In this document: one piece after another, positions 2,561 to 29,737 of the stretch
Numbering within the stretch: the stretch's first letter is position 1
Layout: every line of letters starts with the position of its first letter
DNA from: Promethearchaeum syntrophicum
Lineage (GTDB): Archaea; Asgardarchaeota; Lokiarchaeia; Sigyniarchaeales; Promethearchaeaceae
Length of the DNA stretch: 32,000 nt
Assembly: GCF_008000775.2 (NCBI RefSeq)
Contig: NZ_CP042905.2
Coordinates: forward strand, 2,910,001 to 2,942,000
Direction of reading: 5' to 3'
Position numbers and translations under genes: made by a program
Notes under the pieces: model-generated
The model's database searches: none
Seen by the model: the letters and a program-made list of their open reading frames with translations, nothing else
Told to the model about the DNA's origin: nothing

Positions 2561-5500
2561 TCAATCTTTTTTTGGTTTTTTTGATTTTTTCTTAGGTAAT
2601 TCTTTAATCTTTGGTTTTCTTAGATATCTAATTTTCTTAGGTTTTTGATCCTTTGAAATTGGTTGAAGATCGCCATTTTCGATATCATTAGGTTTTACAA
2701 ATTGATCAGGTTTTAGTTTCTCAATTTTCTGGATTGGTCCTACCTTTTTAGGTTGTTCAGCTTTAGGTAATTCCAAATTTTCCTCTAAACTTGATAGTTT
2801 TCCTTCGATATCAAGTTTCTTTTCTACCTTCGGAATTTTAGGAGTTTTCTTTTGTGATTCTTTTATTGGGGGTTTTTCACCACTAAAATTCTTCTTTACA
2901 TCTCCCTTAGTTATTGATTTTTGATCACTTATGGGAATATGATGAACTTTCAATAATGATTTGTTTCTTGAAGGTAAGGTACCTTTCGTTCTTATTTTAT
3001 AATCTTCAATAAATAATTCATCAGCATTCTTCACGGAAAGTACTTTTTCAGCTCCCTTTCCTTTGGATATTGCTTTATTTAAACTTCTAATTTCTCGAAT
3101 TATTTTTGGATATTTAAAGTGCTGTTGATATGCTATAAACATACCTATCAACCCAACCATTAAAACTCCCATGATATAGAGGAGAAATGCAGGTATTCCT
3201 CCTTCTTGGGGGGCAATCACATTTAAAGTCATTTGAAATTTCTGAAAATTATAATTTCCCCCTTCCTTATAGACAAAAATATCAATTGTATAAATTCCTT
3301 CTTGAATATTTCTCAAATTTGTCGAATATTCACCAGGATTAGATTCTTCCATTTCACCTTCACCATATTTCCATGTGAACGTAACCTCACAACCTTCTAC
3401 ATATCCCCCATAATCTAAATCTTCGATGAATATCGTAGGATCAAAATTTCTTCCCGGTAAAATAGTAAAACTATTATTTTGATTAATTGAGGTGATATTG
3501 GTTTCAATTTGTCGAATTTTTATTTCATTTAATATGGTTTTTTGCTCAAACCCATATTTACTAGCAGTGATTTCTATTGAATAAATTTGATTCACACCAG
3601 TATTGGTATTATTGCAATGAATTTGATAATCCCCATTATTAATTTCATTAACGATGAAATTATCTTCCCAAGTTACGTCAATATTACAACCAGTTATTCC
3701 TAGTCCTGAAGTTTCTTCTTTAAAATTTAGATTTATAATAAAACTCTGATTCAGTGCTACAGTTAATCTGGGAAATTCTTCAACATCCAATATTGTCTTC
3801 AATTCAACTTCAACAACAATATTACTTGATGTACTTGCATAAAGAGGATGACTAGCTTCAATATTTAATGTATTATTTCCAGGATTTATGGAAGGTGCTG
3901 TGAGTTCTGTGAAATAATATCCCGGAGCAATTTCATTCAATGTTTGTAAACCATTTGTCAAATTCAAGAATGTCAAAGTTGCCGATTCAATAGCTTCTCC
4001 GGAAACAATATCAAAGAAATTAATTCGTAAAGATGTTGTAGATCCCTCAATAAAATGGTCGATAAAATCATCATCAGGAATTAAAATGGAATAGTGTTTA
4101 ATAGTTATGTGTGTATAGGCCATGCCAGTTTCATTAATTGGGTTGATACCATCAGTGTTATTCCACGAAACAAAGACATCATAATCGCCCACAATATAGT
4201 CTGGACCATTTTCAGGAATTTGAATTGGACTAAACTGAATTGTTCCATCAGCTAATACAGCAATTTCTTCTGATTTAGAAATCCATTTAGTTCCGTTTGG
4301 GAAAAATATATCAAGGTTTGCATGGGTGCTGGATAAATCAGTAAAATTGACTCCTGAAGTTTTAACTTGAGCAGTGATGTTTAGGTATTCGCCAGAGAAG
4401 TAAGTGTTATTCACGCTCCAATCACTTGGACCGGGAGTACCTGTTGTATTTTTTGATGTAACAAGATTTTGGATATAATTTGGAGATTGTGCATTGAATT
4501 TCCAAAAACCATCTGGTGTTGCTGAAAGATTGTTTACGGGGATTATTAATTGACCAGGTTTAGAAATATCACACTCTGTGATATTATTATCTGTTGGTAA
4601 TTGCGGTGTCGAAACCCAAGTAATTGTCCAATCACTTGGAAAATAAAGTGTAAAATTTTCTTCAGCATACCCAGTCGGAACTGAAAAATACGAATAAAAT
4701 TCCCAATTTGCGTCTGAAGCATTTGCAATGGAAAAAGATGTACCAGGTGATCCAGAATTTGTTTCATAATTTGTTGTAGGACTTGTTTTTTGGGCATATA
4801 AATTAAAATCAGAATTAAAATCAACTGTGTAATCGTAATATGGACTATCATCTGCAGTAAAATTAGCATAAACTGGTGTTGTGGTCCAGCTACTAAGTTG
4901 TGATATTGTTCCCACACCAAAATCAGAGGATAAAATAGAATTTGTGTTCATTTTCAATCCAATTTGTTCAGCTTTTACAGAAGCTTTTACTTCTAATTCA
5001 ATATTTGCTAAAAATACTTGTTGGTGCGAGATATGTGTAAAACCATCTGAGTAACTAGCATCTGTCGCAATATATTGTAATCTTACTGCAATTGAATGAC
5101 TCGTTTCATTAAGTTGAGAAGTAAAAACATTAGTTGTATTTACCCAAATCCCCATTGGAATACTAAAATCATGCCATAGGGATTCTCCATAATTTTTCAA
5201 TGAATAAGTCCCAATAGAATAAATCATAACCGTATCGACATAAAATCTGATTTCCCAAGAATTAAAATTAGCTAAATAATTTGGATTTGCTTGAAAATTT
5301 AAATTTGAATCTTCTATTTGACCTCTATCAATATTAAAAGTGGAATTCCATTGACAGTAGTCTCCTTCATGATAGGAATAATAACCCGCCAACTGTGCAG
5401 CATTACCTTCCATGACTAACTCCAACGCATCTCTTCCTGTCGATGATGCTGAATCATAATAATTTCCAGACATCAAATTAGCAGTTCCGGTATCAATATC

Positions 5501-5998
5501 TGAAAATGTCCAATTTTGGAAAGAATTCTGAATATCCACACTATCATCTTCAGTGAATAGATAGGTTCCGTCATCGTTCCCATAATTAAATGTCCCATTT
5601 ACCCAATTTCTGGTGTCTCTTAAATTAGTAATATCAGAATTTAATTTAGTACCTTCCCAATTTTCACCTAATGGTATTTGGTGCGATGCTTGACTCCCAT
5701 TTGTGAATGTTAAATCTATATCTGAATCAGTTCGGTTAGCATTATGTAGTAAATCCAATGATTGCCCGATTCCAGTATATTCATCAACTAAAATATCCGA
5801 GGAAACTGGAGAATCAATAATTTGAACGTTTTTGCTGATATCGTTTGAATCTGATTTTTTCTCAAAAGAATTGGACAAATTATCAACTTTAAAAACTAAG
5901 AAAAAAAATAAAAACCCTACAATAATTAAAGTTTTTAATTTTCTCTCAGTCTTTCCTTTCGACTTAATTTTTCTATTTCTTACATTTATCTTGTTCAT
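2561..5998 (-). CDS. giant surface protein A2: signal anchor, N-x-S/T-rich ectodomain, single TM, 188-aa Lys/Pro/Glu-rich cytoplasmic tail
   Basis: 1145-aa ORF. Its ATG overlaps the upstream stop (ATGA at 5998-5995). It has an N-terminal hydrophobic anchor (LKTLIIVGFLFFFLVF), more than 20 N-x-S/T sequons by eye, and a TM helix (IPAFLLYIMGVLMVGLIGMFIAY). The juxtamembrane motif YPKIIREIRSLNKAISKGK follows the TM. The tail is paralogous to that of the upstream gene. Confidence 0.85.
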   Translation of the reverse strand: MNKINVRNRKIKSKGKTERKLKTLIIVGFLFFFLVFKVDNLSNSFEKKSDSNDISKNVQIIDSPVSSDILVDEYTGIGQSLDLLHNANRTDSDIDLTFTNGSQASHQIPLGENWEGTKLNSDITNLRDTRNWVNGTFNYGNDDGTYLFTEDDSVDIQNSFQNWTFSDIDTGTANLMSGNYYDSASSTGRDALELVMEGNAAQLAGYYSYHEGDYCQWNSTFNIDRGQIEDSNLNFQANPNYLANFNSWEIRFYVDTVMIYSIGTYSLKNYGESLWHDFSIPMGIWVNTTNVFTSQLNETSHSIAVRLQYIATDASYSDGFTHISHQQVFLANIELEVKASVKAEQIGLKMNTNSILSSDFGVGTISQLSSWTTTPVYANFTADDSPYYDYTVDFNSDFNLYAQKTSPTTNYETNSGSPGTSFSIANASDANWEFYSYFSVPTGYAEENFTLYFPSDWTITWVSTPQLPTDNNITECDISKPGQLIIPVNNLSATPDGFWKFNAQSPNYIQNLVTSKNTTGTPGPSDWSVNNTYFSGEYLNITAQVKTSGVNFTDLSSTHANLDIFFPNGTKWISKSEEIAVLADGTIQFSPIQIPENGPDYIVGDYDVFVSWNNTDGINPINETGMAYTHITIKHYSILIPDDDFIDHFIEGSTTSLRINFFDIVSGEAIESATLTFLNLTNGLQTLNEIAPGYYFTELTAPSINPGNNTLNIEASHPLYASTSSNIVVEVELKTILDVEEFPRLTVALNQSFIINLNFKEETSGLGITGCNIDVTWEDNFIVNEINNGDYQIHCNNTNTGVNQIYSIEITASKYGFEQKTILNEIKIRQIETNITSINQNNSFTILPGRNFDPTIFIEDLDYGGYVEGCEVTFTWKYGEGEMEESNPGEYSTNLRNIQEGIYTIDIFVYKEGGNYNFQKFQMTLNVIAPQEGGIPAFLLYIMGVLMVGLIGMFIAYQQHFKYPKIIREIRSLNKAISKGKGAEKVLSVKNADELFIEDYKIRTKGTLPSRNKSLLKVHHIPISDQKSITKGDVKKNFSGEKPPIKESQKKTPKIPKVEKKLDIEGKLSSLEENLELPKAEQPKKVGPIQKIEKLKPDQFVKPNDIENGDLQPISKDQKPKKIRYLRKPKIKELPKKKSKKPKKD

Positions 5999-8016
5999 TT
6001 TTCATCAGTTTTATTTTTTGGTAAATCTTCAACTTTTGGTTTTCTTAGATATCTAATTTTTTTTGGTTTTTGTCTCATTGATATGGGATTAAGATCACTT
6101 TCTTCGATATTATGAGGCTTTACAAATTGATCGGGTTTTAATTTCTCAATTTTTTGGGTTATTATTACTTTTTTGGGCAGTTCAGCTTTAGGTAATTCCA
6201 AATTTTCCTCTAAGCTCGATGGTTTTTTAGAAATTTCTGGTATTTTTACCTCTTTTGATATTTTAGGAGTGATTATTTCTTTTTCTTTTAAAAGTGCTTC
6301 TTCAACTTTTAACTCTTTTTTAACATCTCCCTTAGTTATTGACTTCTGAACACTTTCTCGAACCCCACGACCTTTCAAATTTGTTTCATTTATTGAAGTC
6401 ACGGATCCTTTTGCTTTGGCAATATAATCCTGAACAAATAAATCATCAGATATTTTCACAGATAACACTTTTTCAGCCGCTTTTCCTTTACGTATAGCTT
6501 TTCCTAAACTTCTAATTTCTCGAATAATTTTTGGGTATTTGAAGTATTGTTGATAGGCAACAAATGAGGTAATTAATCCAACAATAATAAAACCCATAAT
6601 ATAAAAGACGAAATCTGGAATCGATTCCAAAACCGTTGGAATAGGAATATTTCGCTCTACCACTGTAAAAGATGTTGTTAAATTGACATTATCAAACGTT
6701 ACTGTTACATTTTCATTTAAATGAAAATTATCGGCAACAAATAATTGTAACTTCAGTGTTATATTTTCAGTTTCATCTATAAGAGTGGGAGATATGTCAA
6801 AATTTTCACGCTGGAAGGTTGAAGAGAATTCAGTTAATTTAATTGTTTTAGAAAGCAGAACTTGATTAACATAAACTCTGATTTCGGAATTTATAGATGA
6901 AGTAGGCCATAATGGAGAAATTTTATAGTCAAAATAAAGAGAAGCATTATTTATAATAAAAAATCCAACATCACCCAATTCATATTCACCGTTATCAATT
7001 TTATTACCTGTTTGATCCCATGATGCCGATGTTAATTGATCAATTTTCTTTTCATATGTAAATGTAAAATTTACATTTTTTATCCGTAGGTTATTCCAAT
7101 AATCATAATCGGTACCAGCATTATCTTCACAGAATATATCCATACCTAAAATAACAGTAAAGTTCTCCCAATCATGAGAAAAAACTGAAGATAAATAAAA
7201 TTTAATGTTATCTTCTAAAACCATGTTCATATATTTTTCAATTTCAAGAGTGTTGGTTACTGCATCAACATAATATCCCAATTCAGATGATTGGTAATAT
7301 GCAATTTCATAGATATTCTCTAATAATGGATCTGCAATTGATACATAAAACCTAACATGATCGTACACAAATCCTTGAGTGGTTTGAGTTTCCCCAGAAT
7401 ACACATTCGGATCAACATCAATATTAGAATTAACACTTGCATTAATTAATGCACTAACATTAGCAGATGTAATTTGATAATCCGACATATTATTAGGCAT
7501 TGTAAAATTTTGAACCCAAAGAACACTAGGTAATTGTCTAGGCCCTTCTCGCCAACTATGATTTGCCCAACACCCAAATTCATCCATTCCATAAGAATCT
7601 TGCAGAGAATTATATGGCCATTCTGGATAGGCAGGAAAAGCAGGATTATGGATTGCAGTCCAATTTGTACTATCTGGGATTCCACTTACATTTGAAAATT
7701 CGTAATTTTCTCCTATAACTATATTATTAGCTTGATCATTTTCTAAATATTGGTTGATATCTGAGACATCTCCGTCTTCTTCCATGATCCATGGAGAATA
7801 AGAAGGTTCAAAACTAAAATTAGGATCCATAACCATAAGTTTAGAGAAATCTGTTCTATTTTCTATGTAAGAATCCGCAGGTGTTTCAATTTCTAAAGCT
7901 TTTGAATTTCCTATAAAATTTGGGAGAATGATTAAACTAATAAGAATTCCTGATACAAAAATATAAAGAAGTAAGTGGTTTTTTAATTTTTTATTTTTCA
8001 AAATGCTTCCCCCCAT
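5995..8016 (-). CDS. giant surface protein A1 (paralogue of A2): signal anchor, sequon-rich ectodomain, TM, 185-aa conserved cytoplasmic tail
   Basis: The track ORF starts at TTG 8046. I prefer ATG 8016 (MGGSILKNKKLKNHLLLYIFVSGILISLIIL), which lies 2 nt after the TAA of the upstream gene. The TM (FVFYIMGFIIVGLITSFVAY) and the tail (YPKIIREIRSLGKAIRKGK...QKPKKIRYLRKPK) are roughly two-thirds identical to A2 by eye. Confidence 0.8.
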   Translation of the reverse strand: MGGSILKNKKLKNHLLLYIFVSGILISLIILPNFIGNSKALEIETPADSYIENRTDFSKLMVMDPNFSFEPSYSPWIMEEDGDVSDINQYLENDQANNIVIGENYEFSNVSGIPDSTNWTAIHNPAFPAYPEWPYNSLQDSYGMDEFGCWANHSWREGPRQLPSVLWVQNFTMPNNMSDYQITSANVSALINASVNSNIDVDPNVYSGETQTTQGFVYDHVRFYVSIADPLLENIYEIAYYQSSELGYYVDAVTNTLEIEKYMNMVLEDNIKFYLSSVFSHDWENFTVILGMDIFCEDNAGTDYDYWNNLRIKNVNFTFTYEKKIDQLTSASWDQTGNKIDNGEYELGDVGFFIINNASLYFDYKISPLWPTSSINSEIRVYVNQVLLSKTIKLTEFSSTFQRENFDISPTLIDETENITLKLQLFVADNFHLNENVTVTFDNVNLTTSFTVVERNIPIPTVLESIPDFVFYIMGFIIVGLITSFVAYQQYFKYPKIIREIRSLGKAIRKGKAAEKVLSVKISDDLFVQDYIAKAKGSVTSINETNLKGRGVRESVQKSITKGDVKKELKVEEALLKEKEIITPKISKEVKIPEISKKPSSLEENLELPKAELPKKVIITQKIEKLKPDQFVKPHNIEESDLNPISMRQKPKKIRYLRKPKVEDLPKNKTDEK

Positions 8017-8018
8017 TC

Positions 8019-10250
8019 TTATTGCTCTAAAACATTCTCTCTCCAAATTTTTAATCTCTTTGATAATATTTTCCTCTTGAAATCATCCATAAAGGGTTTA
8101 CCATGCAAATCATTTATCCAATTTGTTATATCTGATTCAGTTCGAGCAATATTGAGCTTTTTACTAATTAAAGTTTTGATATCCTCCAAACCACTAACAA
8201 GCGTTTTAGGATCACTAACATCTATCGATTTAGATATTTCTTCAATTTTATCAATTATATCCTGTACATCTCCAGAATCATGTTTCGGTGATTCTTTTTT
8301 AACCTTTTTCTCCTCAACAACCTTAAGTGGTTCTTTACTTTGAGAAGGAGTAGGTATAATTGAGGTATCTTTTTTCAATGCGGGACTGAAAGGATCAATT
8401 ACTACAGGTTTGTGTTTTTCTATGGGTTTTTGCCTATCTGCCTGTTTTTGCAAAGAACTTATTGCTTGTGCCCCCAAACCCCCTTTACTTGGCTCACTAG
8501 GTTTTTTCTTGGGTTCCACTGGAATTAAGCGGGGTTGTTCTGATTTTTTAATTGGCTCTTGTTTAATTGGTTTCTTTATAATATCCTTATGGGCACCCAT
8601 CCAAGCGTCTTCTAGGATAGGGACGAAAATTTTAATATGTTCAGTTAAAATACTCCCGATTCCTGCAACTTCCATTTTAAATCCAGATATTCCTCTATTT
8701 ATCTTTATAATACTCAAAATTATCTCTTCATAATCTCTACTTACTCCCCAAAGATTTTGAAGCTTCCGATCTCTGTACGTAATATTATCCACTGAATCAA
8801 AGAATGCCATTTTTTGTTGATGAATAGGATCATCCGGATAAATAGAGCAGCATAATCTGATATTTATATGGTTTCGGACGTGCTTTAGAGGTTCAATATC
8901 AATATCGGAAAGCGTTGGTGCTACAATTAATATCCGCATTTTGGCTCTTGATATTGCATCATTAATTTGAGCCTGCATTCCTTCGGGAGTTTTTATAAAC
9001 CACACATCTTGCATGGTGAAATTAACTACCCGTTTCGATTCATCCCAAAATTCATCAATAGTCGCCGTGCTTAGATCTAATTGCTTTACAATTTTTCCTA
9101 AAATATCATCTAAGGTTATAACTACCTCATCTGAAAATGTGCTTCGTAAATCACCAAATGATTCATTTACTGTATTCGATATGTTCACAATTCTATCTTG
9201 CGTTTGAGTTAAAGTTGCATCAAATTGAGTAATGATAGAATCAAAAGATGTATGTAATTTATCTCCAATTGAATCCGCGTTAGAGGTAATTTCGGTAATA
9301 TCTTCAAGCAAGGTATCCATAATATTTCTAAACTTAGATTCAAATTCTGCTTGAAGTTCACTCCTTATGATTTCCATTTGATTATCAATATTCTTTTGAA
9401 CGACATCTTCTACTGTTTTTATTACAACACCAAGATGCAATTTTTCAAGATTAGTTGTGATTTTCTTAGAGACGATTTCAAATTGATTAAATAAATTTAC
9501 AAAATGTATATCTAGGAGAGAAATACTCTGATCACGCAAATCTTTAATACCCATAATCACTTTTTGTTGTTCCATTAGATTATGTAAACTATTATCAAGC
9601 ACTGTTCTTTGAGAGGATAATTGTTTGGAAACATCTGTTTTCATTTGATTTAAGTAGTCTATAAATTCGCTAAGAGTTTTAGCACCCTTACTACTTTCTT
9701 CAAAGGACATAAAAGAAGTTTGAAGGTCAGTCGGAGTAGACATCTTCATTGCAGCGATCATATTTCTAAATTTATCCAATTGGGCCATAAGGGCAGCGTA
9801 AGGAGGTAATGCTTGAAAATAAACAGTAGATCCCGGAATTTCTTTAAATAATCCTTTTTTTACGAATTTATCAGTAATTATTTTTATTTGTTCTATAGGG
9901 TGATTTGCGAGTATAGATAATTCTCCTAAAGACATCGGACCTTTTCCACTGGCCATAAAATAGAGTTGGATTTCTTCTTCACTTAATTCTATGCTCTTTA
10001 AAACTTCTTGGGTGAATTTCGTTGATTTTGGTTTAGTATCCGATTTCACTTCTTCTATTTCGAAAGAATCGACATTAAAACCTTTATTTATCGAAATGGT
10101 TAATTTATGGGCAGGCATGCCATGAATGTTTTCTAATTTTACTGGAAATTGAGCGTGTTCCATTGCTTTTCTATCTATTGGAAAAATTATATCTTTTAAG
10201 CAATGTTTACATCGAAAAGTAATTTCTTTCGGAATTTTGTGGATGTTCAT
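8019..10250 (-). CDS. TrmB-like winged-helix / long helical coiled-coil protein with PLD-like C-terminal module and Lys/Pro-rich linker
   Basis: The track ORF starts at TTG 10271. I prefer ATG 10250, which is preceded by AGGTGA (TAAGGTGAATTATATG) 10 nt after the upstream stop. The wHTH segment LSEEEIQLYFMASGKGPMSLGELSILANHPIEQIKIITDKFVKKGLFKEIPGSTVYFQALPP matches the TrmB HTH pattern. About 250 aa of heptad-like helical sequence follows. The segment WFIKTPEGMQAQINDAISRAKMRILIVAP resembles the PLD-like C-domain of TrmB-family proteins. Confidence 0.6.
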   Translation of the reverse strand: MNIHKIPKEITFRCKHCLKDIIFPIDRKAMEHAQFPVKLENIHGMPAHKLTISINKGFNVDSFEIEEVKSDTKPKSTKFTQEVLKSIELSEEEIQLYFMASGKGPMSLGELSILANHPIEQIKIITDKFVKKGLFKEIPGSTVYFQALPPYAALMAQLDKFRNMIAAMKMSTPTDLQTSFMSFEESSKGAKTLSEFIDYLNQMKTDVSKQLSSQRTVLDNSLHNLMEQQKVIMGIKDLRDQSISLLDIHFVNLFNQFEIVSKKITTNLEKLHLGVVIKTVEDVVQKNIDNQMEIIRSELQAEFESKFRNIMDTLLEDITEITSNADSIGDKLHTSFDSIITQFDATLTQTQDRIVNISNTVNESFGDLRSTFSDEVVITLDDILGKIVKQLDLSTATIDEFWDESKRVVNFTMQDVWFIKTPEGMQAQINDAISRAKMRILIVAPTLSDIDIEPLKHVRNHINIRLCCSIYPDDPIHQQKMAFFDSVDNITYRDRKLQNLWGVSRDYEEIILSIIKINRGISGFKMEVAGIGSILTEHIKIFVPILEDAWMGAHKDIIKKPIKQEPIKKSEQPRLIPVEPKKKPSEPSKGGLGAQAISSLQKQADRQKPIEKHKPVVIDPFSPALKKDTSIIPTPSQSKEPLKVVEEKKVKKESPKHDSGDVQDIIDKIEEISKSIDVSDPKTLVSGLEDIKTLISKKLNIARTESDITNWINDLHGKPFMDDFKRKILSKRLKIWRENVLEQ

Positions 10251-10260
10251 ATAATTCACC

Positions 10261-11535
10261 TTATACTCCAACTTTCTCCCAGTATGTATTTTCTAATAAT
10301 TCCAAAGCAATCTGCGCAATTTCCTTTGTTATTGGTGAAACTAATGAAGTTTCATCAATTGCACCCCATCTTAAGGAAGAGCGATCTTTAATTTTGGGTA
10401 ACAAAAATTCAGGAAATGTCGATAGAAAAGAGATTTCAGCCATCACACAAATCCAGTTTCTCCCTTCTCCATCTTTTATTAATTTCACAATACCTACTTC
10501 GAGTAGTTTCTTTAAAACATCATCAAGTTGAGCAAAATTTGATAAAACATTTGGGAGCTTCTTTACAGGATAGGCTTTTGTATTCAATAAAGCAAGTAAA
10601 TCAAAAATATCAGGATCTAAAATAATTTTTGCTAATTTTTCACTTTCTCCATAAAGATCAGTAAATGGATCATATGTAGCGTAATAATTATTTAATTCTT
10701 CAAAATATTGTTTATGGATTTCATGTTTTTTCATATCGGCCATTAATTCTTTTGGAGGGATCCGTATCAACGAAAGATCTTTTAGCAAAAACAAGTATTC
10801 CCCTTCACCGTGAACCCTCCCTGTGTCTTTGCTGTGAACCCCTCTTGCCCAATCCCTTCTGACTATATTCATCTCAAGAAAGGGTTTTAAAATAATATCC
10901 ATATTAGGATTCTTTTTGACTCGATCTATTAGCGATCTTAGTTTAATTCTGGAAAGTGGTCCTTCTTTTAATAGCTTCAACGTCATCATTCGTTCATAAC
11001 TTGAAAAGATCAAAGCAATTTTCTGAATTTTTGTTAAATTTGATAAGCGTTCGATTTGAAATAAGGCAAATTTTACTTGATTCAGCATTTCTCTTTCTAC
11101 TTCTCTTAAAACTTGTGCGGTTTTACTACTTTTAGCAAGTTTATTAAAAATTTTACCCAATTTCTCACACATCTGATAAAATACACCTTCATAGAGTTCA
11201 ACATCGTCGTCCAAAGCAAATAATGCTAAGATTAGGTACTGACTCTCATCAATTGAATGGTGATAATATGAGAGTACTCTGTATGGGGTTTCTTTAAGTC
11301 TTCCTAAAATGAAATTCTTTATCATCCGCTCGCGTTTTTTAAAATCCAATCCTGTGGTGTGATTATAGAATAATCTATACTTATCATTTTCAGTAATTAG
11401 ATCGTTTAAGTCGATCTTTTCCTTTTCGGTGCCGGTCCCAGGCATTTCAGAAACTAAATTTTTAAATTCGGGCTCAATATCCCCCGTTTCATCTTGATTT
11501 AGTTCAAATTGAAAAATTGTAATTGTAACAACCAT
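10261..11535 (-). CDS. longin-like alpha/beta N-domain + tandem winged-helix protein (paralogue of 24261..25340)
   Basis: 424-aa ORF with an ATG start; it is the first gene of operon A. Blocks EYLFLLKDLSLIRIPPKEL and NWICVMAEISFLSTFPEFLL align by eye with TYVFLLKYLICFRAPPLDL and QVYFLKSDIILDFVPMNYMI of the 359-aa protein. WH-like segments include TLKLLKEGPLSRIKLRSLIDRV. Confidence 0.55.
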   Translation of the reverse strand: MVVTITIFQFELNQDETGDIEPEFKNLVSEMPGTGTEKEKIDLNDLITENDKYRLFYNHTTGLDFKKRERMIKNFILGRLKETPYRVLSYYHHSIDESQYLILALFALDDDVELYEGVFYQMCEKLGKIFNKLAKSSKTAQVLREVEREMLNQVKFALFQIERLSNLTKIQKIALIFSSYERMMTLKLLKEGPLSRIKLRSLIDRVKKNPNMDIILKPFLEMNIVRRDWARGVHSKDTGRVHGEGEYLFLLKDLSLIRIPPKELMADMKKHEIHKQYFEELNNYYATYDPFTDLYGESEKLAKIILDPDIFDLLALLNTKAYPVKKLPNVLSNFAQLDDVLKKLLEVGIVKLIKDGEGRNWICVMAEISFLSTFPEFLLPKIKDRSSLRWGAIDETSLVSPITKEIAQIALELLENTYWEKVGV

Positions 11536-11723
11536 TGTAATTTACCTTATATAATATTTTTACATTAATTCTATCATGGAATAGAATTTTGTTTTATATC
11601 TTATATGTCGACCTTTGTTCATAATAAGCCTTTGTTAATAATAATCAAAAAAAAAAATCAATTAATAAGCTTTTAGTATATAATTATTAGGAAAGAAATA
11701 AAAATCAAAGATAAGAGTTTAAA

Positions 11724-12527: not shown

Positions 12528-12738
12528 AAAATAAAAAATAAGAATTGTTCCATTTGTTAAATACAAAAAATCTTTACAGAAGGGGATAAATGAGTCAGTT
12601 TTGAATTTTTGAGAATAAAAAAATTTGTCTTAATCTTCCCTAAAACTATCAAACCACTCGACATTATTCCCCGCACTTCCCCCAAGCTTCGATAATAGTT
12701 TCTCCTATTCACCAGTTTTGAATCTTTTTTTTTACAAA

Positions 12739-22268: not shown

Positions 22269-23357
22269 TTATAATTTTGCGAAAAATTCAGTTTGGGTTT
22301 TTCCTGCTTCAATATGAAGCCCTTGTTGTACGAATTTTTTCATTCCAAGCCATGGAATGATATCGGCGTTATTTGAATCATGGAAAATAGTAGAATTTGC
22401 AAGCATTGGTATTTTATTAAAATCCCGTTTCAACCTTTGGAGGAAAGCAGGAAATTTTGAAGAGCCCCCAATTACAATAATTGAAGCAAATAACTCTCTT
22501 CGGAGAGAAGGAGGAGTTTCTTTCAAAGTTTCAATTAATAATTGATCTACTGCCATATTTTTGTTATTTCCGAGGAAAGGTTTGAATAAGAATTCAGGTA
22601 CAAGTATTTTTTCTATTCCAACAATGATTGATTCATTAAAATTGGGAATATTTATTGTTTCTTTTAATGCTTCTACAAGGATTTTTGATTGTAAAATTTC
22701 ATTAAAATTCTCAACAAAATGGGTTTTAGTAGTTTTAATCTCTTCCACTAATTGTTGAAACTGTTTGTTTTTAATCGGTGTAAATTTCGTTCGAAGTAGT
22801 GATAAGAGATATTCAGATAGATGTTTCCCAGCTAGTTCTGATGATTTAACTGAATTTCTGATGGGTTGTCGTTGTTGATATTGAATAGCTCTAGTTTGAT
22901 CATACCCGAGATCCAATACTGTGCAATTTTCTAAATCATAAAAATATACACTAAACTTACTACTTGGAGCATTCACAATTCTATATATATTAAATTGTTG
23001 AAACAGGAATGCTTTCACTGTGTTTATAGTTTCTTCAGACCATAATACTGGTGTACCTAAAATTAATGTTGAATTCTCGAGAATAGAAGAGAACCGACCA
23101 AAAATAAACAATAAAAAATTTTTAAATATTTCTTCTTTGTGAAATTGCTTGGAAGAAAAAATGTCTTTAATTTCCAAAATTCCTTGGTAGGAGAAAATTT
23201 TCTGATCAAATTTATGATTTTCAAAATCAGGTGAGGTTACTGATGTAAACCGTGGAATTCCCACTTTACTTGTAAATTTTAAGGGATACACATCGTTATA
23301 GGTATTAATTTTTGCGAATCCTGTTCCTAAATCGACTAATATTACATCATCACTCAT
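22269..23357 (-). CDS. divergent actin-family ATPase (actin-related protein, ARP-like)
   Basis: 362 aa. It is collinear with eukaryotic actin by eye. Phosphate-1 is ILVDLGTGFAK (actin: VCDNGSGMCKAG) and phosphate-2 is TVLDLGYDQT (actin: IVMDSGDGVT). LAGKHLSEYL matches LAGRDLTDYL, and IIVGIEKILVPEFLFKPFLG matches [21 protein letters not shown]. The adenosine motif is IIVIGGSSKFPAFLQRLKRDF. GGAGGT lies upstream of the ATG. Confidence 0.85.
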   Translation of the reverse strand: MSDDVILVDLGTGFAKINTYNDVYPLKFTSKVGIPRFTSVTSPDFENHKFDQKIFSYQGILEIKDIFSSKQFHKEEIFKNFLLFIFGRFSSILENSTLILGTPVLWSEETINTVKAFLFQQFNIYRIVNAPSSKFSVYFYDLENCTVLDLGYDQTRAIQYQQRQPIRNSVKSSELAGKHLSEYLLSLLRTKFTPIKNKQFQQLVEEIKTTKTHFVENFNEILQSKILVEALKETINIPNFNESIIVGIEKILVPEFLFKPFLGNNKNMAVDQLLIETLKETPPSLRRELFASIIVIGGSSKFPAFLQRLKRDFNKIPMLANSTIFHDSNNADIIPWLGMKKFVQQGLHIEAGKTQTEFFAKL

Positions 23358-24237
23358 TTATATTACCTCCTGTCCTAGTTCCGAGAATTGTAGATCGGAT
23401 GAACTTTTGTAAGTTTCTATACTGATCCTCTCCGTTTGCAAATTCAAAAATAGGAATTTTTAGAATTAAAGATAAATTTTCGGATAAAATCATATGATCA
23501 TGCTTGAAAGTTATTCCGTAAATCTTTAAATTTGGTTGATTTTGACGAATTTTGAATAATTTAGGGAGAGTGTAGGCAATAAAATCCATATTTGGTTCGA
23601 TTAAAATATAAGCAAAATTTTTGTTTTCCAATAATTGATACATCAATTTTTCATTCTCTATATCAATATTCCAAAATTTAACATCACAATTTGTAAGACC
23701 ATGATCCACGAATTTGAAGATATTTAAATTTTCTAAATTTGATAACTCAGAATCTGACACAGATTGGGAAGATCTTGGAGAATTTTTTGATAGAAAATGC
23801 CAGAAATCTTGCTTTATTTGTGATTGAGGACTAATAATTCCAATATCTAAAGATGTGTTACAGATTTTTAAAACAATTTCATCATAAGGATTGAACTCTT
23901 CCATAGAAAAAATTTCGCGAACTTTGATATGACCAAACTTCTCCAAAAATAGGTTCTTCAGTTCGAAAATTATATCATTGATCAGTTCTAGATTGTCATA
24001 TTTATTCACAAATAGAATTATCGAAACCTCATTATTTAAAAAAGAAGCTATATGCATTTCCAATTCAGACATCTGTAACATTTCAATTTTCTGCTTATAA
24101 TGAGTTAATTGTGCAGAAAATGCATCAATTGCAGTTGTAAATCCCCCTATTAATTGATAATCTACTCTTGTATCAGTAAAACTATGATTATAAATGCAAA
24201 TTCCTACATTCGTGATAACCATTACTTGATGAATCAT
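23350..24237 (-). CDS. longin-like domain fused to a degenerate Ras-like (pseudo-GTPase) domain
   Basis: 295 aa. The N-terminal ~105 aa has a TRAPP/sedlin-like longin pattern (VMVITNVGICIYNHSF...QLIGGFTTAIDAFSAQL...MHIASFLNNEVSIILFVNK). The C-terminal ~170 aa follows small-GTPase strand/helix order, with VKFWNID for WDTAG and ITFKHD for NKxD, but it has no GxxxxGK[ST] P-loop. AAGGAG lies upstream of the ATG. Confidence 0.45.
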   Translation of the reverse strand: MIHQVMVITNVGICIYNHSFTDTRVDYQLIGGFTTAIDAFSAQLTHYKQKIEMLQMSELEMHIASFLNNEVSIILFVNKYDNLELINDIIFELKNLFLEKFGHIKVREIFSMEEFNPYDEIVLKICNTSLDIGIISPQSQIKQDFWHFLSKNSPRSSQSVSDSELSNLENLNIFKFVDHGLTNCDVKFWNIDIENEKLMYQLLENKNFAYILIEPNMDFIAYTLPKLFKIRQNQPNLKIYGITFKHDHMILSENLSLILKIPIFEFANGEDQYRNLQKFIRSTILGTRTGGNINE

Positions 24238-24260: not shown

Positions 24261-25340
24261 TCAGTGAGATTCTAGATAGTTTTCTTTTAATATCGAAATA
24301 TAGCTTAAAAGAAGTTTATCGGGTTTTCTATCCTCAACATGCATATTATAGATCTGATTGATCATGTAGTTCATAGGAACAAAATCCAGAATAATATCGG
24401 ATTTTAAGAAATATACTTGTTCTTCATTTTGATCAACTACAATATCAACAATATCACTATTAATCAAATTATTGACTAAATTCATAACTTGATCGACACC
24501 GTGTAACTTTAGTTTCGTTAAAGAGCTGTGTTTGGCATAAGATTTCCTAAGAAAGTCAATAATGACCCAATAATTAGTTTGTCGTATATAACCGGCAATT
24601 TCAATATTGTCTTGCTCATTTGGCACATATTTCTTAAAGAAATCTCGAATTTTTTTTAAAATCTTTTGATTTAGTTCATTATCTTTCGCTATTTTTATCT
24701 TTTGGGATAAATCTAAAGGAGGTGCCCGAAAACATATAAGATATTTCAACAGAAAGACATAAGTGCCATCAACTCCACGCACGATAGAGGTTTTTAATAT
24801 ATCATTTTGGACTAACCCATCTATAATATATTCAAAGTTATATAATTTGGTCTTAAGGATATCCTCCAACCAAATTTTCAATTCATCCCGATAAAAACAA
24901 CCTTCTTCACTTAATGTTTTGAATATAGCCCGATTAAGATTACTCCCATACATCATTGCTCTACGTTGTTCGAGATTCGTGCTTGGAAATTCGGTACATC
25001 GCTGATAAATTGAAGGTAATAACGTATTAAAGGTATCTTCTTCAATAAAAGGTATTAAATAATATAGAAGATCGGAGATAACTTCCTTGTAATCCTCAGG
25101 TTGTTCTTCAATGGTTAGTAAAAGCGATAAGAAATAGTTATGTGTCGATCCTGTCCATACGGAGATAATATTTAATGCGCCCACATACATGGAAACAATA
25201 TCAGATTGCGCCCCGTAAAGGTGTTGAGAATATAGTTGCATCATAGTCTTATCCGATACATCTAATTCTTTTGGATATTTTCCTAACTCTTCCGCTCCCG
25301 AACGGTAATCCCATCTCCAAAGAATCATACCTATAGGCAT
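24261..25340 (-). CDS. longin-like N-domain + tandem winged-helix protein (paralogue of 10261..11535)
   Basis: 359 aa. Its ATG overlaps the stop of the upstream giant gene by 1 nt (TAATG) and is preceded by GGAGGAG. The N-terminus has a beta-beta-alpha-beta-beta-beta-alpha pattern (IGMILWRWD..GAEELGKYP..MMQLYSQHLYG..IVSMYVGALNIISVWTG..YFLSLLLTIEE..). Two WH-like units align with the 424-aa protein. Confidence 0.5.
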   Translation of the reverse strand: MPIGMILWRWDYRSGAEELGKYPKELDVSDKTMMQLYSQHLYGAQSDIVSMYVGALNIISVWTGSTHNYFLSLLLTIEEQPEDYKEVISDLLYYLIPFIEEDTFNTLLPSIYQRCTEFPSTNLEQRRAMMYGSNLNRAIFKTLSEEGCFYRDELKIWLEDILKTKLYNFEYIIDGLVQNDILKTSIVRGVDGTYVFLLKYLICFRAPPLDLSQKIKIAKDNELNQKILKKIRDFFKKYVPNEQDNIEIAGYIRQTNYWVIIDFLRKSYAKHSSLTKLKLHGVDQVMNLVNNLINSDIVDIVVDQNEEQVYFLKSDIILDFVPMNYMINQIYNMHVEDRKPDKLLLSYISILKENYLESH

Positions 25341-28300
25341 TACAAATCTCCTCCTGTTTTATAGTCTTGCGAAAGTTGATTTATATATTCTAAAACGAGA
25401 TCTACAATTCGAGGAAGATATTGTTCAGAAATACCCATATTTTTCAATTTGATATTGATTTCATCCCGCGAATAGATACTAAGGTCTTCAAACATAAGTT
25501 TAGCTTCCTCTACCAAGAGTGCTTTATTCGTAGCTTGCTGATAGAGATCAATAAACTGCTTAATATCTTCACGAACCGGTTTGAATGGTGATTCCAAATC
25601 TATTGAAATCCAACGCGATCCATATTCCTCACTAATGATTTCATCAATTCTGAGATTGTCTAATTTATACTTCCGCCCTCGTGTGATAACCAATTTTAGG
25701 TGATTTAAATCTTTTACAAATTTTGGAATTCGGGCATTTTTAATTACTATATAACTGCTTAATCCCGTTATAGTGATAAGGAAAGCAACTCCAATAATGA
25801 TCCAAAAAGGAATCGGAATATCAAGAAACTCTTGATAATTTACCTGAACATAAATCTTTTCTGTGGTATGAATATATTCTTCTTTCACAATATTAATTTC
25901 AATTACATAGAGCCCTATTTCATCAAATGATGATAACATAAGTTGAAAATTCCCATCTTCGAGTTCGATAGTTTCACTTTCAATTTCCACATTATCTTTT
26001 ATTATCCGATAAGTGAAAGTCCCCCCAGAAATTTGTTCATGTTTATGATTTCTAGTAGTGATATTTAAAATTAAATCATTTTTCTGTTCAATATCGATAT
26101 CAGAACTATTGTAATATTCTTGATTTTCATTCATAAATATAATATCTGTACTAATTGGTATCAAATGAATATCAAGCGTAAAGGTTGTAAGACTTGTAGA
26201 ATGATTTACTTTCTCAAAAACAATCGAAATAGAATAAGACCCGATAGGAAGAATTTCGGTACCTGGTTTAAATTGATAATTTCCCATTCCAAGATTGTTG
26301 AGTAGTCCGAAATCAGAATAATTCGCATCCACTGATTGAATAGTATAAGTTGTATTCGCATTCTCAATGTTTTCTTCGAAATTATTTACTAAGTTTAAAT
26401 TGAGACTAAATTCATCAAACCGATATATGTCAATTGTATTTCGAAAAATGGTGCTATCATTCAACGAAGTAGGAATAGCATAAATTTCAAATTTTGCAAT
26501 AGCTGTACTCGTAGTATAATAAATTTTCTCAAAAGTTATGATCGAAGTATAATTTCCGATAGGTAATTCGGAAGTTATAGGATCATATCTATAAATACCA
26601 TCGGATTGATGTTCTAATACTCCTGTAACTATAAGATCTGATTCTTCATGACTTAAGTAAAAGGAAGGAGCAATATTAGAGATCGGAACATGTTGATAGT
26701 TATCCCAGAATTCATATTCTACTGTAACATCTTTTTGAGTAACAATTAACTCGTGTTCAGAATAAAAGAGATCTGATCCATTTACTCTAGTTGGTACAGA
26801 ATATATCTCAATATTGAAGTTCCTTGTTCGTTCGTTATAATGATCTTTTTGAGCCAAAACAGATACTGAGTGATATCCTGGTGAAGCAATAGTTGAATTG
26901 ATTTCGATTGCATATAATCCATCAGATAAATAAGTCATTGGAAGATATGATGTAAAATCACCCCATTCAATCCATAATTCCCCATAATGTATTGGAGAAT
27001 CATTATTAAGGTCTCGATATGTTGCATAAACGGTGAAATTTTCATTATAAATCAATGAATCAACATTTTTTGAAATATTTAGAGTTGTTGAGATATTATA
27101 AATGTTAAATATTTCATTGATTGCTTCGGGATCTCCATATCCATATAAAACCGCTTCGATAGATATTGAATATACTATAGGGTTTCCTGAATCAAAGTAC
27201 CCAGAGGTTGTATTGATTACAAATGAATGGTTACCCAGTTCTCCGGGAATTTTATCTGCTTCGCCTTGAAAAATAATATTTCTCTCAATGTCCTCAACCG
27301 TTATGAGAGTTTCATTTGCCCATGTTGGACCTGAAGATCCACCAGGACCATAAGTGATATTATACATAAAGGATAAATCAATATTATCTCCCCAATCATA
27401 AGTTAACGGGAGTGAATTAAATAGAGTCAATTCTGTCTCAAAATTCTCTACTTGTTCACCTGCTAGTGAAATAGTGAGATTTTCATAAAGATAAGAAGAA
27501 TAGGGAGCAGCGGTAAAATTAAAAGCAGAAAAAAGATCATTAATTACAGTCTCTTCCGAAAAAAAGATTATTCGAATCGAATAATTAATAGAACTCAACC
27601 AATTGATAGTTACATTCCCGTTTTCATCGGATAATTCAAATCCAATGTAATCTCCATTGTCCGATGGAGAAGTCCAATTATATAATTCAACGATAGCACC
27701 ATCAACAGGATCCTCAGAAGGATTTTTAATATTTAGATGAATTTTAAACATATCTACTGTTTCTATATGATATGTTGTTGCTAACAGAACAAAATCATCT
27801 AAATAGGCTAAATTTGTGGTATTTCCATAATTATTGTATGTGATATTAATATCGTAATTCTGTTGAATATAATAAATTGAAATATTGCCATAAGAATCAG
27901 TTAAAGAATTATAAATTTGATCTTGTCCTGTAGCATCAAAAATCGAGATATTGGAGTTGGGGAGAACATTTCCAGTTATATCTTTAACTTGAATGTTGAA
28001 TTCTGTTAAATTTGTAGAAATAACAATAAAATCTCCATCACTTGGATAGGAGATTGAATAATTTCGAATAAATCGATTTTCAAGCCATGGTGCTCGTAAT
28101 ATCGCTGTATAATCTCCATCGGGTAAATTCCCGAATGAACAATTACCATTTGAATCGGTTAGTTTTGAAGCGTATTTTTGGTGATTTGTGGAATTTACAA
28201 GGGTAATGTTCACATCCGGAACATCTTTCAGTTCAGAATCAATAATATTAACTTTCAATACCGATATATAGATAACGTCGAGCAAAACTACATCATTTCG

Positions 28301-29479
28301 ATTGTAATCTGTAATATCATCATCAATGGTTATCTCAATTTTATTTTCAGATGCAAGATCTAAACCCAAATCTGTGAAGGAAACAAGAGTGAATGTACCT
28401 TGACCTAATACAGGAGTACTTTGACTATCATGCCAAATATCATTTACATACAGATCTACTATTCGACTATCTGAAGAAGTTCCTGAATTTAAGACCGAAG
28501 TAGACACATTTTGACTCCCTGATAAATCTACATCTAAATTATAGATAGCAAAATCATTAATGAATTGATTTTTTATATCGGATGTTTTAGTCCTTAAATC
28601 GGTTGCATTATCCCCGAATCCATAAATAATCGGCACAGTAAAATAATCTTCTGGATAAAGATCGGATTCATAATACTTTGTTACCATACCACAATTCTGA
28701 TTGAGAGCTGAATCAACATTTCCAAGAGAGCCACTAATATGAGTTTCAAGATCAGTCGGATCACCCACTTCATATTCTACAGGGGTGACAGGTGAATTCC
28801 ACCCGATTGCTCGTTTAGAAATTGCATCTTCTTGCCAAATGAGATTATCCACAGGATCAAAGTAGGCATTATCGTTATCAATAGTTTCATCAATATCCAA
28901 ATCACTTAATGACCAAAATTCAATATTGTATGCCCAATCATCAACATGAAAGGTAAAACTCATGACGAAAAAATTTTCATCCGGATAAACAGCATATACA
29001 ATTCTAATATTTACAGTTACGCTAGGAAATGAGAGTTCCACGACCGTAGATCCGATCTGAGCACCATTTGGGTTTTCTGCGTCTGATAATAGACGTAAAG
29101 GTTCTTCTGCAACTACTATTGCATCGCTCAAAGGTTTGGGATTTTTATCATAAGCTGCCACCCAAAACATAGAATAAAAATTATGATGGAACCCCTCGAA
29201 GTATAAATTACTTTCAGCATTTGATAAAAAGCCCTTTTCATCAATTTTCAATTCATAGTTTCCGTTATTTAGAGTTAGGGCTGTGGCTGAAGTCTGAGGA
29301 AATGTGGAATCATTATCTAAAAAACCGTCCCCAAGATTTTCGGTATTAGATTGAGATAAGTTAATCAAATTTTTGTTTGTATATAATATATTTGCGCATA
29401 AAATGAGCGATATTAGCATAATACCCAAGAATTTGGCCTTAAAATCCTCACGTTTAGTATTTTGTTTATAATCGAGCAT
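25340..29479 (-). CDS. giant surface protein B: signal anchor, sequon-rich ectodomain with CarboxypepD_reg-like and ~105-aa beta-sandwich repeats, TM, 133-aa cytoplasmic helical tail
   Basis: The track ORF starts at GTG 29488. I prefer ATG 29479 (MLDYKQNTKRED..). It has three TDxxGN-type prealbumin-like units (~27590-28260) and repeated modules ending ..LPIGxYxIxIxFEK.. (~25850-27130). The TM is FWIIIGVAFLITITGLSSYIVI. The juxtamembrane IPKFVKDLNHLKLVITRGR is collinear with the YPKIIREIRSLxKAIxKGK of the operon-A proteins. Confidence 0.85.
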   Translation of the reverse strand: MLDYKQNTKREDFKAKFLGIMLISLILCANILYTNKNLINLSQSNTENLGDGFLDNDSTFPQTSATALTLNNGNYELKIDEKGFLSNAESNLYFEGFHHNFYSMFWVAAYDKNPKPLSDAIVVAEEPLRLLSDAENPNGAQIGSTVVELSFPSVTVNIRIVYAVYPDENFFVMSFTFHVDDWAYNIEFWSLSDLDIDETIDNDNAYFDPVDNLIWQEDAISKRAIGWNSPVTPVEYEVGDPTDLETHISGSLGNVDSALNQNCGMVTKYYESDLYPEDYFTVPIIYGFGDNATDLRTKTSDIKNQFINDFAIYNLDVDLSGSQNVSTSVLNSGTSSDSRIVDLYVNDIWHDSQSTPVLGQGTFTLVSFTDLGLDLASENKIEITIDDDITDYNRNDVVLLDVIYISVLKVNIIDSELKDVPDVNITLVNSTNHQKYASKLTDSNGNCSFGNLPDGDYTAILRAPWLENRFIRNYSISYPSDGDFIVISTNLTEFNIQVKDITGNVLPNSNISIFDATGQDQIYNSLTDSYGNISIYYIQQNYDINITYNNYGNTTNLAYLDDFVLLATTYHIETVDMFKIHLNIKNPSEDPVDGAIVELYNWTSPSDNGDYIGFELSDENGNVTINWLSSINYSIRIIFFSEETVINDLFSAFNFTAAPYSSYLYENLTISLAGEQVENFETELTLFNSLPLTYDWGDNIDLSFMYNITYGPGGSSGPTWANETLITVEDIERNIIFQGEADKIPGELGNHSFVINTTSGYFDSGNPIVYSISIEAVLYGYGDPEAINEIFNIYNISTTLNISKNVDSLIYNENFTVYATYRDLNNDSPIHYGELWIEWGDFTSYLPMTYLSDGLYAIEINSTIASPGYHSVSVLAQKDHYNERTRNFNIEIYSVPTRVNGSDLFYSEHELIVTQKDVTVEYEFWDNYQHVPISNIAPSFYLSHEESDLIVTGVLEHQSDGIYRYDPITSELPIGNYTSIITFEKIYYTTSTAIAKFEIYAIPTSLNDSTIFRNTIDIYRFDEFSLNLNLVNNFEENIENANTTYTIQSVDANYSDFGLLNNLGMGNYQFKPGTEILPIGSYSISIVFEKVNHSTSLTTFTLDIHLIPISTDIIFMNENQEYYNSSDIDIEQKNDLILNITTRNHKHEQISGGTFTYRIIKDNVEIESETIELEDGNFQLMLSSFDEIGLYVIEINIVKEEYIHTTEKIYVQVNYQEFLDIPIPFWIIIGVAFLITITGLSSYIVIKNARIPKFVKDLNHLKLVITRGRKYKLDNLRIDEIISEEYGSRWISIDLESPFKPVREDIKQFIDLYQQATNKALLVEEAKLMFEDLSIYSRDEINIKLKNMGISEQYLPRIVDLVLEYINQLSQDYKTGGDL

Positions 29480-29737
29480 GAAAAGCACCTTCTAATTGTA
29501 ATGAGCTACTTTCACCTATATATATTTATCTTATATTATATAATTTGATGGATGGTGGAGGATTATCCAGTGATGAGGTATAATAGATAGATTATCTTTT
29601 TGTAATGTTTCTAAACTATTTTTTTCGTGTTTCCAAACAAGGTTACATCAAAAACGATTAATAAAAACAATTATATAAATAAGTTTACACTTTCACGCAT
29701 CTATATATATAATCATATTTCTTCCTTCATCATAAAA

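Follow-up and report, generated by a model that had tools for sequence, protein, structure and literature searches.

How does an archaeal cell take hold, from the inside, of surface proteins whose outer parts have little in common? The question is posed by a stretch of 32,000 nucleotides from Promethearchaeum syntrophicum MK-D1 (contig NZ_CP042905.2, positions 2,910,001 to 2,942,000; referred to below as the window and numbered from its first letter), in which two operons on the minus strand, A and C, encode three single-pass surface proteins (A, B and C) with a similar 27-residue motif just behind their C-terminal transmembrane (TM) helix. To judge from the sequences, this motif marks, on the cytoplasmic side, a large family of C-terminal membrane-anchor modules that is restricted to Asgard archaea and whose genes stand beside that of a soluble protein, termed the adaptor below. 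We suggest that the tail motif is the likely point at which the cell interior grips its surface proteins, by way of the adaptor, and that the two form a receptor-tail/adaptor system; we put the probability of this reading at roughly 0.55.

The three motif strings occur as a preliminary description of this DNA had quoted them: IPKFVKDLNHLKLVITRGRKYKLDNLR in C (25649..25729, residues 1254-1280), YPKIIREIRSLNKAISKGKGAEKVLSV in A (3032..3112, residues 963-989) and YPKIIREIRSLGKAIRKGKAAEKVLSV in B (6457..6537, residues 504-530), the coordinates given there for the two operon A copies (~3050-3130 and ~6475-6555) being ~18 nt too high. Each starts 6-8 residues past the only C-terminal TM helix of its protein (25751..25819 in C, 3128-3196 in A, 6553-6621 in B), as had been claimed, but A and B are not independent of each other. 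They are paralogous across the entire TM helix and tail, with 129 of 201 residues identical (64%), so that the independent observations number two and not three, and the comparison that counts is that of A/B with C. Between A and C, the 19-residue core of the motif (P..G[KR]) has an ungapped BLOSUM62 score of 36, reached by none of 100,000 shuffles, while all 27 residues together score 20 (p = 6e-4). A profile hidden Markov model (HMM) of the whole module matches A, B and C at E = 5e-55, 1e-24 and 8e-30, respectively.

Some details of the motif as first described need amendment. The acidic/aromatic element said to follow it, DE-hyd-hyd-x-E-[DE]-Y, is present in all three proteins (DEIISEEY at 25622..25645 in C, running on into G-x-R-W; DELFIEDY at 2999-3022 in A), but B reads DDLFVQDY (6424-6447), with Gln at the 'x-E' position, and in C a 2-residue indel separates the element from the motif core. 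Of the proposed consensus, the Pro holds family-wide, whereas the Gly of 'KG[KR]' is lost in orthologues of C (LKNPK or IRKNK), which in other Asgard metagenome-assembled genomes (MAGs) retain ARIP[KR][YF]IKDL..LEK without it. The statement that the ectodomains are very different is mostly right, except that the last Ig-like domain, of ~65 residues, is homologous in A (3218-3397), in C (25835..26026, within the conserved anchor module) and across the family. B of MK-D1, with 683 residues, is without this membrane-proximal domain, which is present in a 984-aa orthologue (locus L004, 13548-16502). The N-terminal ectodomain type of B recurs in ~540-aa tandem members and in locus L011 (10721-11806).

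The motif can be placed in the cytoplasm from three features taken together: an N-terminal signal anchor in each of A, B and C, the density of N-X-S/T sequons (2.8-3.2 per 100 residues in the ectodomains, 0-1.1 in the tails) and the positive-inside rule. Beyond the conserved part the tails go separate ways. That of C continues into a C-type-specific region (25361..25621) with helices predicted at low confidence, which A and B do not have. The tails of A and B (2561-3000 and 5995-6420) run through ~140 residues of Lys/Pro/Glu-rich low complexity and end in a conserved QKPKKIRYLRKPK[IV] block, also seen in the L004 orthologues, so that the A type has a second conserved tail element of its own. 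On reading the sequences, a GxxxG-like spacing is seen in the TM helices, as VGLIG in A and B and as GAIVG in the most frequent type of relative described below (L008-L067).

A profile of the module (last Ig-like domain, TM helix and motif), built from A, B and C only and searched against 1.84 billion protein-cluster representatives, matched 369 of them at E<=1e-3 and 39 at <=1e-10. Among the best 150 matches, nearly all fall on the C-terminal TM helix of a protein that crosses the membrane once, with a recognisable motif after it. The carriers range in length from 134 aa to 4301 aa, and so are not always giant proteins, as had been supposed. Their motifs come in several flavours, namely LYQTHFKYPPMVRKIRKLKKKVRKxKK (the main type), YRVIQQARIPKFVKKVR (type ii), the C type with ARIP[KR][YF]IKDL, the A type and two others. 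In an alignment of 34 diverse members the only invariant column is the motif Pro, and two further columns are conserved at more than 90%, a Tyr in the Ig-like domain and the Tyr that ends the TM helix, as it does in C. All 60 loci taken from genomes come from Asgard MAGs; of ten clusters that were looked up, six are named as Promethearchaeota, one as marine sediment metagenome, and three are without an informative name. The motif-bearing region is covered by no Pfam or NCBIfam model. A word-index homology search returned one near-identical match for the tail of C and none for that of A, and the family surfaced only with the exhaustive profile search.

As read from these alignments, the module consists of the last Ig-like domain, a TM helix with Tyr as its last residue, and an invariant Pro 5-7 residues later, which opens a basic, mostly amphipathic stretch of the pattern P-[KP]-x-[VI]-[KR]-x-[ILV]-x-x-[LIM]... 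A second element, [ST/K]-[RK]-[DE]-x-h-h-x-x-x-[YF], follows ~10 residues past the basic stretch. In each of A, B and C a Tyr closes the single C-terminal TM helix and the Pro stands 5-7 residues on, opening P-x-x-[VI]-[KR]; both window operons contain an adaptor homologue. An Ig-like domain directly outside the membrane is present in A and C and missing from MK-D1 B and from minimal members of 134 aa, and is therefore frequent, not obligatory. The ectodomains borne by the module are very diverse, or there is none at all.

Conservation within the module is steeply graded. Among main-type orthologues, mean identity in an ungapped comparison is 68% over positions -6 to +24 around the Pro and 49% in the TM helix, as against 16% in the last Ig-like domain and 10% in the more distal ectodomain; paralogues encoded at the same locus are 64% identical in the motif vs 27% in the ectodomain. 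In the main type the motif makes up most of the cytoplasmic portion (51-91 residues, measured from the motif start). Within the tail, constraint is strongest on the motif. That its similarity in A, B and C is a mere relic of common descent with no present function, as the shared ancestry of their whole anchor module might suggest, is scarcely credible, being contradicted by a motif that is best conserved while ectodomains diverged almost fully, across hundreds of clusters and many Asgard lineages.

Neither does the motif look like a generic positive-inside stop-transfer sequence, an objection that the preliminary description had raised against itself. An HMM of the motif alone recovers 197 of 199 module open reading frames (ORFs) at E<1e-3, and finds nothing else better than E = 0.07 among 4178 ORFs from 148 sources (the window and 147 loci, a small and local search space). 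A generic positive-inside sequence was rejected on this specificity for module ORFs.

The strongest regularity lies in the gene order. Loci were fetched by the module alone, without use of the adaptor, with two narrower subtype alignments (main type and type ii) as queries; this gave a main-type set of 60 loci from GTDB genomes, about one per genome, and a type-ii set of 80 metagenome loci. The six-frame ORFs of each locus were then searched with an HMM for the adaptor, based on the window proteins and on their relatives, and genes on the same strand within 400 bp were taken as paired. The expectation set beforehand, that motif proteins adjoin adaptor genes, held across the 140 fetched loci with few nominal exceptions. 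In the main type, an adaptor homologue (E about 1e-60) comes directly after 61 module genes, and 30 more stand ahead of a further module gene, in arrays that end in an adaptor; conversely, all 59 adaptors have a module gene before them. Five nominal exceptions are confined to three loci. At L011 the next gene is the N-terminus of a surface-protein gene cut by the contig end, which makes this a continuing array and no true exception; at L032 module genes lie in opposite orientations with no adaptor within the fetched stretch, and at L024 two module ORFs overlap. In type ii no exceptions occur: 76 module genes have an adaptor next to them downstream (E 1e-84 to 1e-98), 5 are fused to it and 10 are cut by a contig end. 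As encoded across the Asgard lineages, the module and the adaptor, represented in the window by proteins of 359 and 424 aa, form an obligate pair, covalently joined in some cases.

The five in-frame fusions (L116, 2-3190; L119, 4724-11626; L123, 3-6071; L126, 3633-9662; L144, 852-7766) string together in one open frame the ectodomain, TM helix, motif (AKIPKFVKK...), ~85 tail residues and the full adaptor, whose usual MP.G start is changed to [IKR]P[RVI]G, with the initiator Met replaced. They speak, as Rosetta-stone evidence, for tail and adaptor being physically coupled. At the other extreme stand minimal members of 134-156 aa (L081, 4805-5206; L090, 14166-14567; L106, 13172-13639), which comprise a signal anchor, essentially no ectodomain, the TM helix, motif and tail, and in each case the adaptor gene comes next. 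Fusions and minimal members together indicate that the conserved functional unit is TM helix, tail and adaptor, with the ectodomain as exchangeable cargo.

The two partners also diversify together. Over 125 non-redundant module-adaptor pairs, motif identity and adaptor identity correlate with a Spearman coefficient of 0.81, and the relations between subtypes are mirrored in both partners, type ii being closest to C and the main type to A. Proteins that interact would be expected to show such a pattern. The idea of one common cytosolic partner has to be given up: each operon type has its own adaptor paralogue, and the flavour of the motif co-diversifies with it. The charges are opposite, about +12 net for the main-type tail motif and a mean of -9 for the adaptors.

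What kind of protein is the adaptor? It had been labelled a longin/winged-helix protein, a description that stands in part: two winged-helix domains are supported, by prediction only, and the longin label is unconfirmed. An AlphaFold2 model computed from 33 sequences (mean predicted local distance difference test score, pLDDT, 79.5) contains winged-helix domains at residues ~134-206 and ~255-321 (pLDDT 80-96), preceded by an N-terminal strand-helix-strand-strand-strand-helix domain (pLDDT 50-78). In support of the fold, again at the level of prediction, Foldseek aligned the winged helices to F93 (root-mean-square deviation 1.7-2.4 over ~70 aa, probability 1.0) and the SmtB/CzrA/CadC family. 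Against the PDB as a whole, Foldseek gave weak or generic winged-helix matches (single-domain regulators, UFL1/DDRGK1, CodY, ESCRT-II Vps22/36), none at E<=0.001. There is no Pfam match, and a profile search against PDB sequences gave nothing meaningful. For the N-terminus, hhalign gave probabilities below 2% against Roadblock and neighbouring families, and no relation to the family of the 295-aa protein of operon C or to that of an N-terminally extended Arf-family GTPase, both described below. The most conserved adaptor residues cluster in this N-terminal, non-winged-helix domain; W10, P23, H40, N57, S60, Y61 and G64 are examples of conserved positions. As modelled, the recognition helices and wings range from neutral to acidic (-1.0, -0.6, -0.8, -1.7), which suits peptide binding better than DNA binding.

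On this basis we favour the reading given at the outset, in which the motif serves the adaptor as a grip. The preliminary description had proposed a docking site for the adaptor; the evidence that tail and adaptor are coupled is strong, and that they touch through the motif itself is plausible but unproven. The adaptor would hold the juxtamembrane stretch together with the second tail element, and a single adaptor would serve every surface protein of its own operon. One adaptor per operon explains why the tail is kept while ectodomains diverge, both in A and B and in tandem paralogues elsewhere. The adaptor might further link the receptor tails to cytosolic partners specific to each operon type: in the C type, the 295-aa protein and an actin-related protein; in the A and main types, a 650-750-aa protein with a TrmB-like winged helix and coiled coils; and in a fourth operon type, small GTPases, which are conserved neighbours there.

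Several points weigh against this reading. Adjacency, fusion and co-diversification couple the tail to the adaptor but do not prove that the motif is the contact, and duplication of whole operons without any contact would give the same co-diversification. The adaptor could instead hold the second element or subtype-specific parts of the tail. The motif is still conserved where the adaptor is covalently fused, so recruiting the adaptor cannot be its sole role. The C-type motif is not significantly amphipathic (hydrophobic moment 0.34, reached by 32% of shuffles). The subtypes KYPKPVRKVRKYR and long-tailed KYPKIIRKIHD are known from the protein search only and stand outside the pairing counts. 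Finally, AlphaFold2 on the concatenated C tail and adaptor gave no confident docking (mean pLDDT 55, tail 23-40); in this run the tail had no alignment depth and one homologue was apparently misaligned (18% vs 92% identity), and at such values for the tail it says nothing about docking.

Persistence of the motif in the fusions speaks for the alternative that survives best, although we still consider it unlikely, namely that the motif is a basic amphipathic helix at the membrane interface, serving stop-transfer and topology, lipid binding or clustering, with the adaptor bound elsewhere on the tail. The position directly past the TM helix fits, as does the high net charge of the main type, and the hydrophobic moment is high in A and B (0.62-0.69) and in the main type (0.60), values reached by 1-3% of shuffles. 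A generic positive-inside helix, however, needs no invariant Pro, no fixed Tyr/Gln/Phe frame (LYQTHFKYPP) and no 68% identity across lineages, nor would it be expected to follow the adaptor subfamily in flavour or to go unmatched, as the motif HMM does, by any other membrane protein in the 148 sources; the weak amphipathicity of the C-type motif counts against such a helix as well.

The two predicted winged helices raise a different and rather improbable alternative, signalling from surface to genes. Here the adaptor, perhaps together with the TrmB-like 650-750-aa protein, would regulate genes by binding DNA; it would be held at the tail and released or activated on ligand binding, a scheme comparable to that of membrane-tethered (ToxR/CadC-type) and sequestered (Mlc-PtsG) regulators. 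The motif would serve for docking here too, but to a transcriptional and not a cytoskeletal end. The top fold matches of the adaptor are mostly transcription factors, the main-type partner contains a true TrmB winged helix-turn-helix (30 bits, cutoff 25.6), regulators are often encoded beside their targets, and the fusions resemble one-component membrane regulators. Yet the adaptors are acidic, with recognition helices and wings predicted to be neutral to negative, and their conservation peaks outside the winged helices. The fold matches are weak (E>=0.01) and include winged-helix arrays that bind proteins (UFL1/DDRGK1, ESCRT-II), and the C-type operon has a gene for an actin-family protein, not for a regulator.

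Also to be weighed is the frequent occurrence of module genes in tandem, with 30 of them followed by another, and the unusually conserved TM helix with its GAIVG and VGLIG motifs. This spacing, together with the conservation, hints at helix-helix packing between family members. The TM helix and motif might then mainly assemble tandem-encoded surface proteins with one another, in the way of the integrin alpha/beta clasp, and the adaptor would be an assembly factor or chaperone, not a lasting partner of the tail. We think this improbable to a high degree, since many loci, C-type operons included, have a single module gene, and since fusions and members without an ectodomain link the tail with the adaptor rather than with another surface protein.

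Operon C starts with the surface protein C (25340..29488, minus; 1382 aa from a GTG, with an ATG at 29479), which has an N-terminal signal anchor, an ectodomain of CarboxypepD_reg/Ig-like repeats (PF13620, 1e-12), the one C-terminal TM helix and a 129-aa cytoplasmic tail. The 359-aa adaptor follows (24261..25340; adaptor HMM 7e-163). The stop of C overlaps its start codon (TAATG), with a Shine-Dalgarno-like run, GGAGGAG, just upstream (25338-25355, minus), which suggests translational coupling and a fixed stoichiometry. The third gene encodes an uncharacterised protein of 295 aa (23350..24237) and the fourth an actin-family protein of 362 aa (22269..23357; PF00022, 9e-24, 84 bits vs a cutoff of 27). 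Since the PF00022 match covers residues 58-316 only, the latter is a divergent member of its family. All these genes lie on the minus strand, and this operon (surface protein, adaptor, ~290-aa protein, actin-family protein) recurs in other MAGs with its third and fourth genes conserved. By eye, the N-terminal pattern of the 295-aa protein (MIHQVMVITNVG...DYQLIGGFTTAIDAF) resembles domains of the longin/roadblock type. It has no significant Pfam or profile match, GTP_EFTU at E = 0.057 being at noise level; hhalign showed no relation of its family to the Roadblock genes or to the extended Arf-family GTPases, and BLASTP against the 750-aa protein gave nothing.

Operon A, also on the minus strand, runs from the 424-aa adaptor (DSAG12_03152, 10261..11535; adaptor HMM 1e-124) through a 750-aa protein (8019..10271) to B (5995..8046; 683 aa from a TTG, with an ATG at 8016) and A (2561..5998; 1145 aa, with the anchor module at its C-terminal end). 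The 750-aa protein has a long helical middle between a TrmB-like winged helix and a C-terminal domain; it scores 17.6 bits against PF01978 (cutoff 25.6), and its homologue in L029 reaches 30 bits. This gene order (adaptor, 750-aa protein, B, A) likewise recurs in other MAGs. A gene for an N6/N4 DNA methyltransferase (11724-12527, plus strand; PF01555, 5e-45) flanks operon A divergently, and the same neighbour is found in L004-L006.

In the main type, a short-chain dehydrogenase gene is followed by one to three module genes, a 375-aa adaptor and a ~650-aa protein homologous to the 750-aa protein of the window. The ~269-aa dehydrogenase-like product, so named on reading the sequence, is a conserved flank (L010, 5991-6794; the pattern in L008-L067), and the ~650-aa TrmB winged-helix/coiled-coil protein after the adaptor is found over the same range (L010, 11670-13625). 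Just upstream of the operon lies a divergent ORF of ~155-160 aa; the one that was scanned (L032, 8899-9375) is a Roadblock/LC7 protein (PF03259, 4.6e-10). The type-ii loci have two GTPase genes, a Gtr1/RagA-like one two genes upstream of the module gene (PF04670, 8e-24) and, convergent and directly downstream of the adaptor, an Arf-family one with a ~115-aa N-terminal extension (PF00025, 3e-19). In L106 these occupy 3783-4724(+) and 11719-12771(-), and the arrangement is the same in most of L068-L147. This looks like conserved synteny, and the GTPases are possibly part of the same system.

Open-access papers and bioRxiv preprints gave no description of the motif, the module or the adaptor, an earlier description elsewhere being possible, and in our view the tail/adaptor pair is an Asgard-specific system that had not been described before. 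An S-layer is absent from cultured Lokiarchaeia, and unexplained 'complex surface proteins' are seen on their actin-supported protrusions (Lokiarchaeum cryo-electron tomography, PMC9834061). The present finding offers a testable molecular candidate for the link between surface and interior, with a cytoplasmic handle, a dedicated partner and downstream candidates in the actin-related protein, the GTPases and the coiled-coil protein. Asgard surface proteins of this class can be picked out of metagenomes with a short HMM, the alignment of 125 pairs is usable for complex prediction, and the natural fusions point to constructs for structural work. A more far-reaching and speculative possibility, which we regard as unlikely on present evidence, is that Asgard archaea have built integrin-like outside-in and inside-out coupling from unrelated parts, the adaptor wiring a shared adhesin handle to an actin-related protein, GTPases or a coiled-coil scaffold. 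Protrusions, and the contacts of the cell with its syntrophic partners, would be organised by such coupling, if real. A link to the cytoskeleton, should it hold, has direct bearing on eukaryogenesis models in which cells make contact through protrusions.

Among known systems, those in which a winged-helix protein is coupled or fused to a single-pass membrane protein whose external domain is large (ToxR/CadC, Mlc-PtsG) are alike in outline. They differ in that the Asgard winged-helix part is C-terminal to the TM helix, so that orientation and domain order are not the same, and in the acidic surfaces that the adaptor is predicted to present where DNA would be read. ESCRT-II Vps22/Vps36 and UFL1-DDRGK1, which use repeated winged helices for protein binding near membranes, are among the best fold matches of the adaptor. 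These matches are weak (E 0.01-0.13, TM-score 0.14-0.25), and the adaptor has a distinct, highly conserved N-terminal domain. With no match to the Pfam models EAP30/ESCRT-II and Foldseek values for ESCRT-II of E = 0.08-0.13 and TM-score 0.15-0.24, it does not qualify as an ESCRT-II protein.

The closest formal analogues are the prokaryotic C-terminal sorting modules, and the closest functional analogues the eukaryotic adhesion-receptor tails held by FERM-type adaptors; the Asgard proteins belong to neither. PGF-CTERM/archaeosortase A, LPXTG/sortase and PEP-CTERM/exosortase share with them a tripartite C-terminal module (signature, TM helix, basic residues) on diverse, large, Ig-rich surface proteins. 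The sorting systems have an extracytoplasmic signature, a basic tail of a few residues right at the C-terminus and a membrane transpeptidase as partner, whereas the Asgard signature is cytoplasmic, spans ~45 aa and is followed by 55-270 further residues, and its constant neighbour is a soluble winged-helix protein. The tails of the window proteins extend 129-183 aa beyond the motif start, far from a very short basic C-terminus. A PGF-CTERM/sortase-type signal was rejected, as the tails of A, C and four relatives gave no NCBIfam match above noise.

Integrin beta tails bind talin and kindlin, and FERM (ERM) proteins bind basic juxtamembrane clusters of CD44, CD43 and ICAM-2. Homology to integrins was rejected, the Asgard tails having no Pfam match to integrin (Integrin_b_cyt) or FERM models and, on reading, no NPxY. 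The adaptor, predicted to consist of an alpha/beta domain and two winged helices, is not a FERM protein. The link to actin is a matter of operon co-occurrence in one subfamily only, and the Asgard genes are operonic and sometimes fused, unlike the eukaryotic pairs. The likeness lies in the design: large single-pass proteins of adhesion type with short tails, a conserved or basic membrane-proximal stretch that would be held by an actin-connecting adaptor, and one adaptor for several receptors with unrelated ectodomains. If integrin-like coupling does exist in these archaea, it would be a prokaryotic counterpart, or a forerunner in principle, of the linkages between adhesion receptor, adaptor and cytoskeleton in eukaryotes.

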